DNA of 43,807 nucleotides, taken from positions 454,762-498,568 of IMG/VR virus record IMGVR_UViG_3300020429_000529. One strand, written 5' to 3'. Position 1 is the first letter of the stretch. Each line of letters starts with the position of its first letter. A program made the translations under genes and the position numbers. The DNA comes from a virus. Of the stretch, positions 2,836 to 38,426 are shown one piece after another. A model generated the notes under the pieces. The model was not told the DNA's origin. It worked only from the letters and a program-made list of their open reading frames with translations, and made no database searches.

Positions 2836-3504
2836 ATGGCTTCGAAGAAGAACAGCGGCAACGGCGGCTCCGGCGGTTCCACCCCGACCCTCGACAGCGC
2901 GACGACCGGCGCGATCGAGCAGCTTACCTCGGTCGCTCAGGGCGCTGTCGCGACTGCCCAGACTCACTCCGAGGCGCTCGCCACGGCGCAGACGGGCCTC
3001 GATGAGGCGATCGCTCAGGCGACGGCTGCCAACGAGCGGATCGTCGCTCTCGGCGGCACGCCCATCGAGATCCCCTCGTCCAACGGAACGGCGACGGCGA
3101 CCGCTCCGAGGCGTCGGCGCAACAGCGGCGGTCGGTCGAGTTCGAGCGCGCCTCGTACCAGCGGTCGGCGTCGTCCTCGCAACCCCTACGACTTCCCGAC
3201 CAGCATTCTGATCGCGATGGCTGGCAGTCGCGTCGGCACCGAGTTCGACAACGCTGCGATCCAGGCGGCGCTCCGCATCAACCAGGACGGCGGCTTCCGT
3301 ACCAACGCCAACGAGACCTCGCTGCGGACGCAGATCACGCAGAACATCGGGCGCGTCATGGACGGCAACCACGAGGCTCCGAAGGGTTCGTTCGTCCAGG
3401 TCCGTCGCGGCGTCTACGCCATCACCTCCGAGGGCAAGGCGTTCGTCAAGGGCTGCTCCCTCGCCGATGCGGTCGAGGCCGACGAGAGCGAGTCGTCCGA
3501 CTGA
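2836..3504 (+). CDS. DNA-binding protein with a Gly/Ser/Arg-rich N-terminus and a C-terminal Mrr_N-like winged helix
   Basis: Shine-Dalgarno site AAGGA. The C-terminus reads ...RTQITQNIGRVMDG...VQVRRGVYAITSEGKAFV, which matches the Mrr N-terminal winged-helix pattern. An RRRR/RRRPR tract is present. A terminator follows. Confidence 0.7.
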   Translation: MASKKNSGNGGSGGSTPTLDSATTGAIEQLTSVAQGAVATAQTHSEALATAQTGLDEAIAQATAANERIVALGGTPIEIPSSNGTATATAPRRRRNSGGRSSSSAPRTSGRRRPRNPYDFPTSILIAMAGSRVGTEFDNAAIQAALRINQDGGFRTNANETSLRTQITQNIGRVMDGNHEAPKGSFVQVRRGVYAITSEGKAFVKGCSLADAVEADESESSD

Positions 3505-3529
3505 CGACAGCCTCGGGCACGACTTCAAG

Positions 3530-3561
3530 GCCGTCGCTCCTTCGGGGGCGGCGGCTTTTTT
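3530..3561 (+). terminator. rho-independent terminator
   Basis: GCCGTCGCTCC, TTCG loop, GGGGCGGCGGC, then TTTTTT. Confidence 0.75.
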
Positions 3562-3587
3562 GCGCGAAATCCGATCGTTGGGGTTAT

Positions 3588-3599
3588 CAAAGATAGGTG
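3588..3599 (+). promoter_or_regulatory. CAAAGATAGGTG 12-mer, copy 1
   Basis: Exact 12-mer, downstream of the 3530-3561 terminator. Confidence 0.6.
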
Positions 3600-3845
3600 G
3601 GCGGCGTATACATAGTGGAGGGGAAGGATTCCTCTAACTGGGGCCTCGGCGCTATGGAGTTGGCGTCGGGGCCTTTTTCTTTCCGCATCTGCCCATGAGG
3701 GCTGTCTCGCTGACATCTATGGCAGACGGCTTCTCCTTGCCGTTGGGAAACTCGGTCGGCGGCGTCTCGTCGGGCGTCGTCGGCTTTACTCGCCACTGAC
3801 GGGCGGAACAATCGGGCATTTGCGTCATTCCCTGAAAGGACTCGG

Positions 3846-5405
3846 ATGCCTCAGATCACCCTCCCCAAATCGTTCTTCACCAAAGAGCGCGACAATCTCT
3901 ACTCTGACTGGCGGACCGCGTTCTGGCGCGAGGACTTCCAGAACAGCATCGACGCGGGCGCAACCGAGATCCGTATCTCCTTCGAGCAGATGGGAGATGA
4001 TCTCGCTGTCGAGTTCATCGACAATGGCTGCGGCATGACCCGAGATGTCATCGAGAATGTCTTTTTCGCGCTCGGAGAGACCACCAAGACCGGCAGCACG
4101 ACAGGCGGCTTCGGACGCGCCCGCATTCTGACATGCTTCGCTATGGGCTCTTACGAGTTCTGGACTGGCAACCTGCATGTTACGGGCGATGGCGCAAACT
4201 ACAACATCAACGACAACCAGCCTCATGTCAGCGGATGCCGCTTCCGAGTCGTCATCAACAACGAGACGGCAGAGAAGATGCGGACGGCGCTGAAGAAGGT
4301 TCTGCTGATGTCGCAGATGTCCTGCCATGTCTTCGTCGATGGCGAGCGTTGGACGAACTGGCTCCACAAGCGCCGGCTCGTCAAGACTGCGAGCTACGGC
4401 AGCATCCATGTCAACAAGAACGGACAGTTCACGAACCAGGTTATCGTCCGAGTCAATGGTCTTTGGATGTATTCCATCTACTGCGAGGCCAAGGCGCAGG
4501 TGATCGTCGAGATCGATCCGACCAAGAGCCGAGAGGTTTTGACCGTCAACCGAGACGGCATGCACTACAACTACAGCAACGACCTGCAATCATTCATCAA
4601 CGAGTTGGCTGTCGATACTCGATCGGCGCTGCGGGCACGCAGGCGCAAGACTCGGCTCATCGAAGGAACCGGCGTTCATACGACATCCCGTCCCATCGAC
4701 ATCCCGCAGAACGATTGGGAGGAAACCGCTCCTTCTGACACGATCTCTGTCGGCAACAATGTCGCTGTCGCTGCTGGCGGTACGATCGCCGCTGCGATCC
4801 AGGTCAACAGAGCGCAGTCGGTTCATGCCAACGAGGTTGAGTCTGAGATCATCAAGGGAGAGCAGATCGAGACTGGTCTGCCTGCGATCTACATCAACGA
4901 CGAGACCGATCCGATGGATCTGTCCCATGCGGCTGTTCGCAAGATCATCGACAACTTCGACCCGACCCGTTGGGTGCATGCGGTCAAGAAGGTTCGCGGG
5001 CACGAGCAGCCCTACCGCAAGGGAGCGAACTATCTCAAGCTGCTGATCGCATGGGAGGCATGTTGTCTTGAGGCGATCAAGGCGCTGCTGAACACGGACT
5101 ACGCTCCGCAGCAGTTGCGCTGGTTGGTCGGTTGGACGTTCTCTTTCGAGGACGGCGCATGTCATGTTGGTCTGTCGGAGGGTCATGCTCTTTGCTTGAA
5201 CCCTGTCAAGAAGGACGGCAAGCTGCGCTACAAGACCAGAGATCGCAGCGATCAGATTCGTCTGATGGCTCTTGCCAAGCATGAGGTTGCGCATGTCATC
5301 GTTGGTCCCCATAATGAGGACTATGCGGCGGTATTGACAGCAATCGACAGTCACTTCGATGCGCAGTCATGTTTCAAGGCGATTCGTCAAGCGCTTGCTG
5401 CATAA
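3846..5405 (+). CDS. GHKL-family (HATPase_c) ATPase-domain protein with a C-terminal HExxH motif
   Basis: Bergerat-fold motifs are present: EDFQNSIDAG, DNGCGM and GGFGRARIL. The C-terminus contains KHEVAHVIVGPH. A Shine-Dalgarno site AAAGGA precedes the start. Confidence 0.7.
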   Translation: MPQITLPKSFFTKERDNLYSDWRTAFWREDFQNSIDAGATEIRISFEQMGDDLAVEFIDNGCGMTRDVIENVFFALGETTKTGSTTGGFGRARILTCFAMGSYEFWTGNLHVTGDGANYNINDNQPHVSGCRFRVVINNETAEKMRTALKKVLLMSQMSCHVFVDGERWTNWLHKRRLVKTASYGSIHVNKNGQFTNQVIVRVNGLWMYSIYCEAKAQVIVEIDPTKSREVLTVNRDGMHYNYSNDLQSFINELAVDTRSALRARRRKTRLIEGTGVHTTSRPIDIPQNDWEETAPSDTISVGNNVAVAAGGTIAAAIQVNRAQSVHANEVESEIIKGEQIETGLPAIYINDETDPMDLSHAAVRKIIDNFDPTRWVHAVKKVRGHEQPYRKGANYLKLLIAWEACCLEAIKALLNTDYAPQQLRWLVGWTFSFEDGACHVGLSEGHALCLNPVKKDGKLRYKTRDRSDQIRLMALAKHEVAHVIVGPHNEDYAAVLTAIDSHFDAQSCFKAIRQALAA

Positions 5406-5465
5406 GGGTTTACGATAATGTCGCGAAAAATATCAAGAAACATGGAACACCAGAACGATGACGAC

Positions 5466-5494
5466 TTGCAAGCTCGATGAGAACTTGCTAATCT
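5466..5494 (+). promoter_or_regulatory. σ70-like promoter: TTGCAA, 17-nt spacer, TAATCT
   Basis: Read directly. It sits in an AT-richer intergenic stretch upstream of the 5579 gene. Confidence 0.4.
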
Positions 5495-5578
5495 GTCTCG
5501 ACCGAGCAACTCGGAAGCACAAAAACCAGGCGTGACGTTTGCCTCATACTCTCAAGGACGAGATAGGGAGGAAGAGAG

Positions 5579-6181
5579 ATGGCACTATGCATCCCAGACA
5601 ACCAGCCCATCGCACCGATGTGCAAGGAAGTAGTAGACGAATGTTGGGCGAAACGCGTACCTCCGGCTCTTGTCGCAGATCACATTACGCAGGTCGTCGA
5701 ACGGAAGATCGAGATCACAGGCATGACGCCTGGCGCAGCGAGAGACAATGTAATCGCTCTCTTGATTGAGAACGAGTACCGTTACAGCCTCGAAGACCAT
5801 CTCATCGTTTTGTCGCGCATGATTGAGAAGGGCGAAGTTGACCTGGACATTTACGCGCCTCAAGATACCCGCATCGACGATCTCCGCATGGTACATGACG
5901 GTAAGTGGGGCGAGGAGAAGGATGAGGTCGCAGAAGACATCCTGACGCCTGCCATCGATCAGGTTGTGGAAACTGGCGGGTTGACGAGGCTGATGCTTGC
6001 GGCGCAGACGGGAGACCTGGATGAGGTCATGCGTCTTGTCGAGATCGAATGCGCCGACACGCAGATCAGGTGCAACAGCAAGATGAATGCGTATCAGCGG
6101 GCACGGGACATGGGTTGGTTCGAGGTCTCAGACTACCTTGAGCAGTTCGAATCCACTGACGAGCTTGCTGAGGCTGTCTAA
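5579..6181 (+). CDS. hypothetical protein with an ankyrin-like repeat
   Basis: Shine-Dalgarno site GGGAGG. The C-terminus contains an ankyrin-like segment, GLTRLMLAAQTGDLDEVMRLVE. Confidence 0.6.
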   Translation: MALCIPDNQPIAPMCKEVVDECWAKRVPPALVADHITQVVERKIEITGMTPGAARDNVIALLIENEYRYSLEDHLIVLSRMIEKGEVDLDIYAPQDTRIDDLRMVHDGKWGEEKDEVAEDILTPAIDQVVETGGLTRLMLAAQTGDLDEVMRLVEIECADTQIRCNSKMNAYQRARDMGWFEVSDYLEQFESTDELAEAV

Positions 6182-8160: not shown

Positions 8161-8338
8161 TGAGTCCCATGAGCGTATTCCGCTTACATCTCGGCCTGTT
8201 GCTTGCGTAAGGGGAAGACCCCCGCTAACGCATCTCTTGCGCCTTGAGATGACCTCAACCCACAACTGAAGAAACCGACTATCCCAAGAGGTGACAGCAG
8301 ACCGCGGTATGCTGATCGCTTGGCGGGGTAGCTCTTTT

Positions 8339-8420
8339 GGCCCCGTGGCGGAATTGGCAGACGCGCCAGATTTAGGATCTGGTTCCCTCGGGAGTGCAGG
8401 TTCGAAGCCTGTCGGGGCTA
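8339..8420 (+). tRNA. tRNA-Leu (anticodon TAG)
   Basis: Manual cloverleaf. The anticodon loop is TTTAGGA, the variable arm is long and the T-loop is TTCGAAG. The 1:72 pair is G:U. Confidence 0.75.
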
Positions 8421-8426
8421 TTTGAG

Positions 8427-8501
8427 GCCTGGGTGCGTCAATGTGGCAGAACGGCCAGCATGAGATGCTGGTGGATGGAGGTTCGAATCCTCTCTCAGGC
8501 A
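8427..8501 (+). tRNA. class-I tRNA (short variable loop) with anticodon GAG, identity uncertain
   Basis: The loop is ATGAGAT and the variable loop is 5 nt. The T-loop TTCGAAT is canonical. A73. Same scaffold as 9173-9247. Confidence 0.5.
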
Positions 8502-8514
8502 TTTGGAGACAGTC

Positions 8515-8670
8515 ATGACGGACGAAGCGAAGCAGGATCATGGAACATTCGTAGATCCCGCAGAAGCTCTGAAGCGGGCGTATGACGCAGCGCCAGAGAA
8601 GATGGCAGAGGTTCTCGGGGGCGAGCCTCATCCTCTGCCTGAGAAGAAGGACGAAGAAGACGACGACTGA
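8515..8670 (+). CDS. small acidic hypothetical protein (51 aa)
   Basis: A GGAGA Shine-Dalgarno site lies 7 nt upstream. GC3 is high. Not in the ORF track because it is under 60 aa. Confidence 0.4.
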   Translation: MTDEAKQDHGTFVDPAEALKRAYDAAPEKMAEVLGGEPHPLPEKKDEEDDD

Positions 8671-8677
8671 ACAACTT

Positions 8678-8757
8678 GGCCCTGTGGCGGAATTGGCAGA
8701 CGCGCCGGATTCAAAACCCGGTTCTTAGGAGTGCAGGTTCGACCCCTGTCAGGGCTA
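8678..8757 (+). tRNA. tRNA-Leu (anticodon CAA)
   Basis: The loop is TTCAAAA and the variable arm is long. Paralog of 8339-8420. Confidence 0.7.
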
Positions 8758-8868
8758 TTGGAAGGAAGAGACATGCTTTTACCTGGAAGACTTCAGCTTG
8801 CTCTTTTGCTCTCTGAGAAGATCAAGGCATGGCAAGAGCGAAGGAGGCTGAAGAAGGAGGCCTCATGA

Positions 8869-9072
8869 ATGATGGACTTCAGCAACCCGCCGATGCATCG
8901 CATCGAATCGTGGGTGAACAAGTCGTTCAGAATACCTGATGCAGAGTTCACAGTAACAGATGTACGAAAGAGTCCGAAGGGATCGATCGTCGTACATGGC
9001 AGAGCAGTAGGAATACACGGATCAGTCAACAGAGTTCATTCAGCTTACTGGCTGGCGAAATGGGCTCCATAA
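8869..9072 (+). CDS. hypothetical protein (67 aa)
   Basis: An AAGGAGG Shine-Dalgarno site is upstream. The gene lies between tRNA genes. Confidence 0.45.
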   Translation: MMDFSNPPMHRIESWVNKSFRIPDAEFTVTDVRKSPKGSIVVHGRAVGIHGSVNRVHSAYWLAKWAP

Positions 9073-9077
9073 ATCAA

Positions 9078-9161
9078 GCGGACATGGCGGAATTGGCAGA
9101 CGCGCAACCTTGAGGTGGTTGTTCCCTAACGGGAGTGGAGGTTCGAGCCCTCTTGTCCGCA
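9078..9161 (+). tRNA. tRNA-Leu (anticodon GAG)
   Basis: The loop is TTGAGGT with G37. The variable arm is long. The acceptor stem GCGGACA/TGTCCGC is perfect. Confidence 0.75.
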
Positions 9162-9172
9162 TTTTACCCGAT

Positions 9173-9247
9173 GCCTGGGTGCGTCAACTTGGCAGAACGG
9201 CCATGCTCAGAACATGGTGGATGGAGGTTCGAATCCTCTCTCAGGCA
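9173..9247 (+). tRNA. class-I tRNA with anticodon CAG, identity uncertain
   Basis: The loop is CTCAGAA and the variable loop is 5 nt (TGGAT). The T-arm is canonical. A73. Confidence 0.5.
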
Positions 9248-9258
9248 CTTCCCCATTC

Positions 9259-9342
9259 GGGGGCGTAGCAGAATGGCATATGCGGCGGACTTAAAATCCG
9301 CAGTCCTCTGGACAGTTGCGGGTTCGACTCCCGTCGCCCCTA
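9259..9342 (+). tRNA. tRNA-Leu (anticodon TAA)
   Basis: The loop is CTTAAAA, the variable arm is long and the D stem is 3 bp. Confidence 0.7.
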
Positions 9343-11114: not shown

Positions 11115-11189
11115 GGGCGGGTAGCTCAATTGGCCAGAGCGCCTGGTTTACACCCAGGAGGTTTGAGGGTTCGAGTCCCTCCTCGCCTA
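11115..11189 (+). tRNA. tRNA-Val (anticodon TAC)
   Basis: The loop is TTTACAC and the T-loop is TTCGAGT. The variable loop appears to be 6 nt. Confidence 0.65.
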
Positions 11190-11205
11190 CTTCAGACATT
11201 TGATG

Positions 11206-11287
11206 GTGGCCTTGGCAGATAGGCAATGCACCTGGTTGTGGTCCAGGGTCCGTAAGGACAATGCGGGTTCGAATCCCGTAGGTCACC
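11206..11287 (+). tRNA. class-II tRNA-like gene (long variable arm) with anticodon GTG, identity uncertain
   Basis: The anticodon arm is CCTGG, TTGTGGT, CCAGG. The variable arm is 15 nt, the D stem is 3 bp, the T-loop is TTCGAAT and the discriminator is C. Confidence 0.45.
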
Positions 11288-11299
11288 CTTTAGATAGAC

Positions 11300-11371
11300 A
11301 GGCTTGTAGCTCAGCGGCAGAGCGCTCCCCTGATAAGGGAGAGGACGGGATCTCGGAATTCCCCAAGCCTA
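11300..11371 (+). tRNA. tRNA-Ile (anticodon GAT)-like with a degenerate T-loop
   Basis: The acceptor stem and anticodon arm are nearly identical to bacterial tRNA-Ile(GAU). The T-loop is CTCGGAA and lacks T54 and A58. Confidence 0.45.
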
Positions 11372-11372
11372 T

Positions 11373-11457
11373 TGGGTCGTGCGCCGAATTGGTTAGGCAC
11401 CCGACTGATAATCGGGGAGCGTTAAGCTCTATGCAGGTTCGAGTCCTGTCGGCCCTA
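11373..11457 (+). tRNA. class-II tRNA-like gene with anticodon GAT, identity uncertain
   Basis: The anticodon arm is CCCGA, CTGATAA, TCGGG. The 16-nt variable arm forms a hairpin. Position 1:72 is a mismatch. Confidence 0.4.
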
Positions 11458-11476
11458 TTGACGATACACTGAATGA

Positions 11477-11550
11477 GGCCCCTTAGCTCAGTTGGCCAGA
11501 GCGCTTGCATGACACGCAAGAGGCCGTTGGTTCGAGTCCAACAGGGGTCA
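11477..11550 (+). tRNA. tRNA-Val (anticodon GAC)
   Basis: Clean class-I cloverleaf. The loop is ATGACAC. Confidence 0.75.
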
Positions 11551-11555
11551 TTCGG

Positions 11556-11630
11556 GGAGCAGGTACAAGTTAGTCCACATTCCGCGGATGCGGAGCGACG
11601 TTGGCTCAAGATACCTGCTCCCTCTTTTTC
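11556..11630 (+). terminator. long imperfect hairpin (~70 nt) followed by TCTTTTTC
   Basis: GGAGCAGGTA pairs with TACCTGCTCC, with a nested CCGCGGATGCGG hairpin. A T-tract follows. Confidence 0.45.
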
Positions 11631-11632
11631 AT

Positions 11633-11707
11633 GGGGGCGTAGCTTAGCTGGCCCAAAGCATACGACTCATAATCGTGAGATCGTCGGTTCGAATCCGACC
11701 GCCCCTA
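11633..11707 (+). tRNA. tRNA-Met (anticodon CAT), elongator or Ile2-like
   Basis: The loop is CTCATAA. There are no initiator features such as a C1:A72 mismatch or GGG/CCC pairs. Confidence 0.7.
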
Positions 11708-12064
11708 CTTTTCAGGCACGCATAAACCCAAGCGCAACAACGACTTGCTCCTCGGAGCCGAAAAAAGTCGCGCAGAAAGACCACTGACGCTTGAAGGTGC
11801 AATGAAGATTGGGTATACTTCTCGAACCGCCGCAGCGAGCAGCAGCGAGCTACGACGGACTTTGGCAACCGAATACTGAACGATGCCCCGACGCTCATCT
11901 GAGACGATCTTCGGATCAACTGAGCCGAGCTTAGGGGCACCTTGGGGCTGAAAGCCGAACCGACAAGAATGGTCGATTTAGTACGAGCAGAGTCGTGAAA
12001 CACTGATCTGCGAAGGACGGACATACCGATCATCATTCAGTAAGAAAGTCGTAGGCCCCGCCTT

Positions 12065-38352: not shown

Positions 38353-38426
38353 GCCCCGGTAGCTCAACTGGATAGAGCGGCGGACTTCTAATCCGCAGGT
38401 TACAGGTTCGAATCCTGTCCGGGGTG
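38353..38426 (+). tRNA. tRNA-Arg (anticodon TCT)
   Basis: Clean class-I cloverleaf. The loop is CTTCTAA and the T-loop is TTCGAAT. The 1:72 pair is G:U. Confidence 0.75.

Follow-up and report, generated by a model that had tools for sequence, protein, structure and literature searches.

A viral protein family combining a GHKL-transducer ATPase with a Wss1/SPRTN-like zincin domain

The subject of this study is a gene on a 43,807-nucleotide stretch of viral DNA, positions 454,762 to 498,568 of IMG/VR record IMGVR_UViG_3300020429_000529. The whole stretch is referred to as the window, and coordinates written as start..end refer to its plus strand. The gene, which is complete at 3846..5405 (stop codon included) according to the listing of open reading frames (ORFs) and to full-length homologs, encodes a protein of 519 residues in which a GHKL-transducer ATPase is followed by a zincin domain related to the proteases Wss1 and SPRTN. 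The two parts, a GHKL-transducer ATPase and a WLM-like minimal zincin, are known as such, and their combination is not represented as a family in Pfam, NCBIfam, PADLOC, or PHROGs. Molecular identity can be given with high confidence and the domains are firmly assigned, whereas the role in biology is a hypothesis; it is the coupling of the modules and the substrate that we infer. The explanation we favor, at slightly less than even confidence, is that the protein acts as an ATP-gated dimeric clamp carrying a Wss1/SPRTN/ArdC-like protease, which would cut host proteins that are probably DNA associated or involved in defense.

Domain architecture, conserved motifs, and family

The N-terminal 140 residues (3846..4265), including an N-terminal strap helix, form a Bergerat-fold (GHKL) ATP-binding domain, as judged from Pfam, profile, and Foldseek searches and from the structure model. 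Both Pfam HATPase_c (29.3 bits, cut-off 26.4) and HATPase_c_3 (28.5 bits, cut-off 25) exceeded their gathering cut-offs. Conservation was counted in an alignment (A1) of 112 of the at least 175 full-length homologs returned by a word-seeded search (30 to 53% identity at about 100% coverage), almost all of which are unnamed or labeled "hypothetical" or "ATP-binding protein." Motif I, the N-box E29-x3-N33-x2-D36 (3930..3953), is predicted to supply the catalytic base and a Mg2+ ligand; motif II, the G1 box D59-N-G-C-G-M64 (residues 59 to 64; 4020..4037), is predicted to contact adenine; and motif III, the G2 box G87-G-F-G-R-A-R-I-L95 (4104..4130), lies at the end of the ATP lid. E29, N33, D36, D59, G61, G63, M64, G87, G90, A92, and R93 are unchanged in all 112 homologs, and G88 is kept in 111. 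A preliminary description made from the sequence had recognized these three motifs near the N terminus, and each is found where it was placed; since the motif residues are invariant or nearly so in the homologs, the identification as a GHKL ATPase stands. The ATPase module is larger than first noted, extending beyond the GHKL domain to include a transducer domain.

This beta-rich, transducer-like middle domain was located by Foldseek at residues 141 to 295 (4266..4730). Against the PDB, the best structural match was TRAP1/Hsp90 (E 6.5e-12), besides the ATPase cassettes of MORC3 and MORC4 and MutL-N40, all with a probability of 1.00. As the alignments to these two-domain cassettes (for TRAP1, the N-terminal and middle domains) cover approximately 345 to 385 columns, the match spans the GHKL domain and a transducer-type second domain. 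When the family profile was compared with PDB sequences, MutL and MORC were the best matches. We thus place the module in the class of clamp-forming GHKL-transducer ATPases, where the rIIA group may be its closest neighbor, although it is no curated member of MutL, Hsp90, or rIIA. Specifically, NCBIfam MutL (TIGR00585) scored 27.8 bits against a cut-off of 180, NCBIfam HSP90 scored 15 bits against a cut-off of 455, and the PHROG RIIA profiles gave nonsignificant E values of 0.016 and 0.091, with no full-length similarity to rIIA. The transducer domain is basic (isoelectric point 9.65, net charge +6.8) and the GHKL domain is acidic. R236 (4551..4553), invariant in 112/112 homologs within the motif L-T-x-N-R-D-G, is a candidate γ-phosphate sensor, which we assume by analogy with R380 of Hsp90 and the sensor lysine of MutL and GyrB; the motif probably resembles that around the catalytic-loop arginine of Hsp90.

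The full-length AlphaFold model reached a predicted local distance difference test (pLDDT) value of 89.2 and a predicted template modeling (pTM) score of 0.81. Disorder is limited to the ATP-lid loop (residues 85 to 88) and to a hypervariable linker (residues 299 to 328; 4740..4829) with pLDDT values below 50, and apart from the lid loop the GHKL domain exceeds 90. The stretch aligned to residues 290 to 335 varies in length from 0 to 111 residues among the homologs, with a median of 43.5. Because the pTM score is this high despite the disordered linker, the model suggests that the two modules pack together.

Beyond the linker, residues 352 to 519 (4899..5402) constitute a WLM/Wss1-like minimal zincin domain, assigned from fold model and motif. 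As the full-length profile returned GHKL proteins only when compared with the PDB, this domain was excised and modeled separately. The resulting model (pLDDT 97.1, pTM 0.90) displays the alpha/beta minimal-zincin fold, with a helix, a beta-hairpin, a long helix, a three-stranded sheet, the active-site helix, and two C-terminal helices in this order; a noncatalytic helical C terminus devoid of zinc ligands, which had been considered in the preliminary description, was not obtained. Its comparison figures were 8.7 for projannalysin, 8.4 for both proabylysin and selecase, 7.4 to 8.4 for YbeY-type proteins, and 7.4 for SPRTN. The closest structural relatives of the domain are Wss1 and SPRTN, proteases acting on DNA-protein cross-links (DPCs).

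The zinc and catalytic motif reads H479-E480-V-A-H483-x5-H489-N-E491 (5280..5318). Its first part, the HEVAH noted earlier near the C terminus, occupies residues 479 to 483 (nucleotides 5280 to 5294), 41 residues from the C terminus. H479 is present in 112/112 homologs, E480, H483, and H489 in 111/112 each, and E491 in 109/112. With five conserved residues, the motif is HExxH-x5-H-x-E and not a bare HExxH. H489, the third zinc ligand, follows H483 by six residues, which is the spacing of WLM domains and metzincins. In the full-length model, H479 and E480 are located at the end of the active-site helix (residues 467 to 482), and H483 and H489 in the next turn, as in WLM domains. The metallopeptidase-like character proposed earlier for the C terminus is therefore supported both by a conserved third ligand and by a confidently modeled zincin fold. 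A profile match aligned the query motif with HELTHNVHGEHD of Wss1b, the alignment covering HExxHx5HxxxF. When residues 352 to 519 were excised from 46 homologs (alignment A2) and the domains scanned one by one against Pfam, WLM was matched by 23/46 (E<=10; best E 2.2e-6) and YgjP-like by 22/46, both being HExxHx5H zincin families. PHROGs contained no family matching the C-terminal domain. With a score of its own below the WLM gathering cut-off, the domain is a superfamily-level relative of WLM and no curated member.

By our estimate, a bare HExxH occurs by chance in roughly 1 to 2% of proteins of this size; here the motif is judged real because of its conservation and its fold context. Four of the 112 homologs deviate in the zinc motif. 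P0106 (from a Candidimonas metagenome-assembled genome [MAG]; H-E-Y-D-N) and P0097 (HQxxH) are altered at catalytic or ligand positions and, going by their sequences, are possible pseudo-protease variants; P0096 and P0101 are altered at E491 only (E491Q). All four keep an intact ATPase.

The fusion is a constant feature of a large protein family. When the C-terminal domain was used by itself in an exhaustive profile search, 1124 representative clusters (50% identity) were retrieved with a threshold of E<=1e-3, and the number fell to 480 with E<=1e-10 and to 145 with E<=1e-30. The zincin domain was found almost exclusively behind a GHKL ATPase. Full-length matches place it at about residues 350 to 520 of a protein of 500 to 550 residues, and longer variants of 690 to 780 residues start with GHKL as well. 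Viral relatives whose ATPase is only 25 to 34% identical still keep the zinc motif in the form HExxH-x5-8-H-[DN]-E-x-[FY].

The family is essentially viral and patchy. IMG/VR yielded 50 related loci, the largest contigs among them having 494, 488, 370, 281, 235, and 215 kb, whereas 185,579 species-representative genomes yielded 2 loci only, both on MAG contigs, and tblastn found no match to the GHKL-zincin protein in the 50,697 reference phage records of INPHARED. Homologs in "bacterial" assemblies reside on short contigs with phage-like content. On one of these, a contig of a Cereibacter sphaeroides assembly (L063, 206-6992), the homolog lies beside genes for NAPRTase, NAD synthase, and a nucleoside deoxyribosyltransferase-like protein, an NAD-salvage cluster of the kind that phages use against NAD-depleting defense. 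A homolog contig of 145-378 kb carries endonuclease VII and SbcC.

Two further observations concern larger relatives. A subgroup of IMG/VR contigs of 54 to 69% GC (L040-L050 and L053) encodes distant relatives that, by crude ORF calls, appear to have 780 to 1240 residues, with HE[CV]TH in mid-protein, a longer spacer to H-[DN]-E, and a large additional C-terminal extension. The top viral structural match in the BFVD library, A0A516L4L2_1 (1404 residues), aligned over 628 columns (E 2.4e-15), and given this length it may hold both ATPase and zincin inside a larger protein.

The fusion of a GHKL ATPase to a metallopeptidase motif had been called unusual beforehand, an appraisal that agrees with the database and literature record. 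No family of Pfam, NCBIfam, PADLOC, or PHROGs covers the whole GHKL-zincin protein. The best PADLOC match was REase_II (E 0.008, 12.5 bits), giving no membership in a defense system, and NCBIfam MzaB scored 13.9 bits against a cut-off of 850, giving none in a named family. Full-text literature searches for GHKL together with WLM, zincin, SprT, or related terms returned no account of the fusion, and a comparative-genomics review of jumbo phages lists SprT-like peptidases, ArdC-like peptidases, and rIIA separately, without a fusion. Two database matches were rejected: phmmer matches to Cake/SAKe designer beta-propellers in the PDB (E down to 1e-12) are artefacts, being sums of sub-threshold repeats of one 30-residue match, and a Pfam match to UbiD_C (E 0.041, residues 308 to 387) falls in the disordered linker.

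Proposed mechanism and competing explanations

According to the explanation that we favor, the protein would be a cytoplasmic two-enzyme product of a huge marine phage, consisting of an ATPase module, a flexible linker, and a Wss1/SPRTN-like zinc metalloprotease. GHKL-transducer proteins such as Hsp90, MutL, MORC, and type II topoisomerases dimerize on ATP, and MutL and MORC are DNA clamps. By analogy, ATP binding is accordingly predicted to make the two protomers of a dimer close their N-terminal gate around a client or onto it. Most likely, this client would be a DNA-bound protein, which is proposed because the transducer domain is basic and both modules have DNA-dependent relatives. Gate closure would position or unmask the two zincin active sites of the dimer, which would then cut the client; H479, H483, and H489 are the predicted zinc ligands, and E480 is the predicted general base. 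ATP hydrolysis, with E29 as the putative base and R236 as the γ-phosphate sensor, would reset the clamp. The protein may serve early in infection as a host-takeover or counter-defense protease analogous to ArdC; such a role, and a DNA-associated host target, are suggested because relatives act on DNA-bound clients, because the transducer is basic, and because ArdC provides a precedent.

Several points weigh against this explanation. The query scored only 12.5 bits (E 0.15) with Pfam WLM (PF08325), below the gathering cut-off of 26 bits, and the top PDB match of the A2 profile, the WLM domain of Schizosaccharomyces pombe Wss1b, was nonsignificant (E 0.53); consequently, the protease assignment rests on fold and motif rather than on membership in a sequence family. 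DNA binding is suggested by domain charge and analogy only. rIIA, which dominates the BFVD matches of the ATPase module, is mechanistically not understood, and the neighborhoods of the 56 loci compared give no pointer to the substrate. The more far-reaching idea, namely that the protein represents a new class of ATP-dependent protease in which a GHKL clamp seizes a specific host protein in its folded and probably DNA-bound state and hands it over to two tethered Wss1-like sites, is a possibility that we consider unlikely overall.

A role in genome maintenance, in which the protein would act as a DPC protease in the replication of the phage itself, is improbable. Here, the GHKL clamp would load on DNA and, before the replisome of a 0.5-Mb genome arrives, the zincin would clear proteins trapped covalently or tightly, such as topoisomerases or stalled complexes, in line with the structural proximity of the C-terminal domain to the DPC proteases Wss1 and SPRTN, the basic transducer, the DNA clamps MutL and MORC among the relatives of the ATPase, and the position of the gene downstream of a DnaB-like helicase gene in the huge-phage subgroup. 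This helicase synteny, however, does not extend beyond some 7 loci that are close relatives of one another, and other loci have unrelated neighbors. The scarcity of the family in species genomes (2 loci in 185,579) and its absence from INPHARED, whose records include many large-genome jumbo phages, likewise count against it, since such a patchy spread suits conflict genes better than core replication genes.

Somewhat less probable still is that the protein protects against abortive infection by prophage or host through the mechanism of rIIA, the zincin being one of many interchangeable C-terminal modules. In BFVD, residues 1 to about 300 matched mostly proteins annotated as phage RIIA (E 1e-10 to 1e-12, about 295 to 310 columns), and hhalign of the family profile with T4 rIIA gave a probability of 85.7% (E 5.5e-6), the N-terminal strap included; the PHROG RIIA matches mentioned above point in the same direction, but their E values are not significant. 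Orthology to rIIA was rejected upon comparison with T4 rIIA, as the match comprises 139 columns and the GHKL domain alone, and T4 rIIA lacks HExxH. No rIIB-like neighbor was detected among the flanking ORFs with Pfam or PHROGs. Moreover, the PDB matches to Hsp90, MORC, and MutL are equally good, so that the likeness to rIIA may be at superfamily level only. A protector of this type would in any case overlap with the clamp-protease explanation, both being counter-defense roles.

There is a slight chance that the C-terminal domain is a GHKL-regulated hydrolase other than a peptidase, with RNase activity of the YbeY kind or the nucleotide pyrophosphatase activity reported for YgjP-like proteins, the latter family being matched by the 22/46 excised domains mentioned above. 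The motif of YbeY is HGxLH, without a general-base Glu, whereas the Glu of HExxH is present in 111/112 homologs here, and the top structural and Pfam matches are WLM proteases. The chance is smaller again for a maturation protease linked to an Hsp90-like phage chaperone and processing virion or other phage proteins: while the best Foldseek E values against the PDB are those to TRAP1/Hsp90 and phage "HSP90 family" proteins occur among the BFVD matches, the NCBIfam HSP90 score is far below its cut-off, no recognizable structural or packaging gene lies nearby in the loci examined, and a patchy distribution is atypical of morphogenesis genes. Finally, a coincidental or vestigial HExxH within a noncatalytic dimerization domain has negligible probability and was excluded on the grounds of conservation and fold, since, although the motif is short, often arises by chance, and deviates in 4/112 homologs, each of its five residues is kept in at least 109/112, the fold is confidently that of a zincin, and relatives with 25% identity still retain the motif.

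Gene boundaries and genomic context

The ORF at 3846..5405 is intact and starts with ATG, preceded at a distance of 5 nt by the ribosome-binding site AAGGA (3836..3840, read directly from the sequence). This start codon is supported by the homolog alignments, which run from residue 1 to the end. Upstream, a terminator-like hairpin (3527-3558) followed by U6 (3527..3564 in total; folding free energy of the RNA -25.8 kcal/mol, z -3.85) lies after the preceding 222-residue ORF, and a second one (3640-3675) with a U-rich tail (3640..3685; -27.3 kcal/mol, z -3.52) was found by the terminator scan and RNA folding 160 nt upstream of the gene. Downstream, a spacer of 173 nt (5406..5578), AT-richer with 47% GC compared with 58% for the whole window, precedes a 200-residue ankyrin-like ORF; RNA folding of this spacer revealed no hairpin or stable structure after the stop codon. 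Owing to the two upstream hairpins and the AT-richer spacer downstream, the gene is physically isolated. The preliminary description had it standing alone between a terminator and an AT-rich promoter region. The isolation and the terminator are in accordance with these data, two strong hairpins being present, and an AT-richer spacer does exist, but it lies 3′ of the gene, where it would serve the next one, and no sigma-70 consensus promoter was detected by a promoter scan of positions 3300 to 5800. Promoters specific to the phage may be used.

The window has a GC content of 58% and consists of small, mostly same-strand ORFans. Upstream of the GHKL-zincin gene are a DnaB-like helicase gene (phrog_19, E 3.7e-10) and two ORFans; downstream are the ankyrin-like ORF and a metallophosphoesterase gene. 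The same gene order recurs in a relative of 477-502 kb (41% protein identity) and on a few more huge viral contigs. No tblastn match to the helicase was obtained in the 50,697 INPHARED records. To what extent neighbors recur was assessed in 56 loci by crude ORF calling and all-versus-all BLASTP, a procedure of limited sensitivity for fast-evolving phage genes. A partner gene conserved in related genomes, which had been raised as a possibility at the outset, did not emerge: no neighbor family occurs in more than 7 of the 56 loci, these 7 forming a huge-phage subgroup, compared with 46 for the GHKL-zincin cluster itself. As no partner is conserved, the protein appears to be a self-contained unit. 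Its context is a huge-phage genome, not a defense island.

An identical protein is encoded on at least 24 marine metagenome contigs (from Tara and other sources), the longest of about 498.6 kb. The query originates from Tara station 128 (DCM). The window is part of an element of about 498.6 kb that was assembled at nearly the same size in several marine samples (L001, ENA NODE_1289088, has 498,610 bp), and syntenic relatives of 477 to 502 kb with about 41% protein identity were found (among them L007 and L023 of 477 to 488 kb and L012 of 494 kb). Together, these look like a clade of megaphage-like marine genomes of about 0.5 Mb and 58% GC.

A tRNA scan detected 12 tRNA genes on the plus strand of the window (8338-9342, 11115-11708, and 38353-38426). 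The first array, 1 kb in length, contains six tRNA-Leu genes with five anticodons (TAG, GAG twice, CAA, CAG, and TAA); the second has the order Val-His-Ile-Val-Met, and a lone tRNA-Arg(TCT) gene is located further on. Such arrays are typical for huge phages re-tooling translation. Across the window (1-43807), the cumulative GC skew rises up to about 12 to 14 kb and then falls, and the AT skew goes steadily from about 0 to +0.2; this switch in strand composition near the tRNA arrays may mark a replication or transcription boundary.

Some observations were made on ORFs close to the gene. The 200-residue ORF at 5579-6181(+) is ankyrin-like, and its ortholog in L007 matches Ank_4. It also weakly matches MzaA (E 3.2e-5, far under the cut-off), and the GHKL protein weakly matches MzaB of the same MZA anti-phage system, a pairing that is probably noise from shared domains. 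The upstream 222-residue ORF (2836-3504, plus strand) has a low-complexity N-terminal half rich in Ala, Thr, Gly, and Arg, and its C-terminal half gives a sub-threshold match (E 0.0012) to DUF2161, a putative PD-(D/E)XK phosphodiesterase. On the source contig, upstream of the window start (L001, 2708-3953), a 224-residue SMC/AAA_23-like ORF overlaps a convergent 201-residue ORF with a Fic domain, and L007, the relative of 41% identity, likewise has a Fic ORF in the vicinity of the gene. Fic toxins or AMPylators in the early region of a megaphage may be host-manipulation genes.

Significance and relation to known systems

To our knowledge, the well-characterized ATP-dependent proteases (Lon, FtsH, Clp, HslUV, and the proteasome) all use AAA+ unfoldases. 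If the proposed function holds, a GHKL clamp in permanent fusion with a zincin would link proteolysis to nucleotide state by a different mechanism, outside AAA+, and would provide huge phages with a programmable "clamp-and-cut" weapon directed at defense or nucleoid proteins of the host. Wss1/SPRTN-type proteases, which serve eukaryotic genome maintenance with ArdC as a mobile-element outlier, would then extend to a large phage-specific family. Assigning the function would also annotate recurrent dark matter of huge phages, at least 1100 unannotated clusters (50% identity) enriched on very large viral contigs, and may help to understand the rIIA-type GHKL proteins, long a puzzle and similar in the ATPase module. 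The two invariant sets of catalytic residues make the hypothesis directly testable by point mutants.

Among the systems to which the protein can be compared, the AAA+ proteases FtsH and Lon offer a conceptual parallel only, in that ATPase and protease (a zincin in FtsH) share one polypeptide. The proposed GHKL dimeric clamp differs from a hexameric AAA+ unfoldase ring, a membrane anchor is lacking, and there is no relation in sequence or fold, with no AAA+ matches in Pfam, NCBIfam, or Foldseek searches. With phage rIIA, the protein shares a phage ATPase module composed of GHKL and transducer domains (about 300 Foldseek columns, in addition to the hhalign result). T4 rIIA, in contrast, has 725 residues and no HExxH, shows no similarity past about residue 190, and has a partner, rIIB, which is without counterpart here. 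MutL, MORC, and Hsp90 likewise combine a Bergerat fold with all motifs and a subsequent transducer domain, and MutL shares with the query a disordered linker that connects the ATPase with a metal-dependent hydrolase domain at the C terminus. However, the C terminus of the query adopts a protease fold instead of the endonuclease/dimerization domain of MutL, the C-terminal domain of Hsp90, or the coiled-coil and CW domains of MORC.

The zincin itself resembles those of the Wss1/WLM proteins (yeast Wss1 and S. pombe Wss1b) and SPRTN/Spartan in its zinc site, where HExxH-x5-H precedes an acidic and an aromatic residue, and in being small and without a propeptide. It differs from Wss1/WLM in its Pfam WLM score (12.5 bits, below the gathering cut-off of 26), in being viral rather than eukaryotic, in its fusion to a GHKL ATPase, in an additional near-invariant Glu (E491) two residues past the third His, and in an N-terminal helix and beta-hairpin (residues 352 to 391) ahead of the core. 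Neither ubiquitin, SUMO, or Cdc48-binding modules nor the zinc-binding DNA subdomain of SPRTN were detected in the query.

The best functional analogy is provided by ArdC of plasmid R388 and of huge phages. In ArdC, a DNA-binding domain is joined to a Spartan-like zincin; the protein counteracts restriction in the recipient cell (PMC7213743) and is reported in 101 huge-phage genomes (bioRxiv 10.1101/2025.02.27.640493). No sequence similarity between the two proteins was detected. The third metal ligand of ArdC is a Glu on the "glutamate helix" (PMC7213743), whereas that of the query is a His at +6, and the N terminus of ArdC is a passive single-stranded DNA-binding domain, whereas that of the query is a GHKL ATPase. 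What unites them is the overall design of a mobile-element protein in which an N-terminal module, engaging DNA in ArdC and predicted to do so here, precedes a C-terminal Spartan-like zincin.

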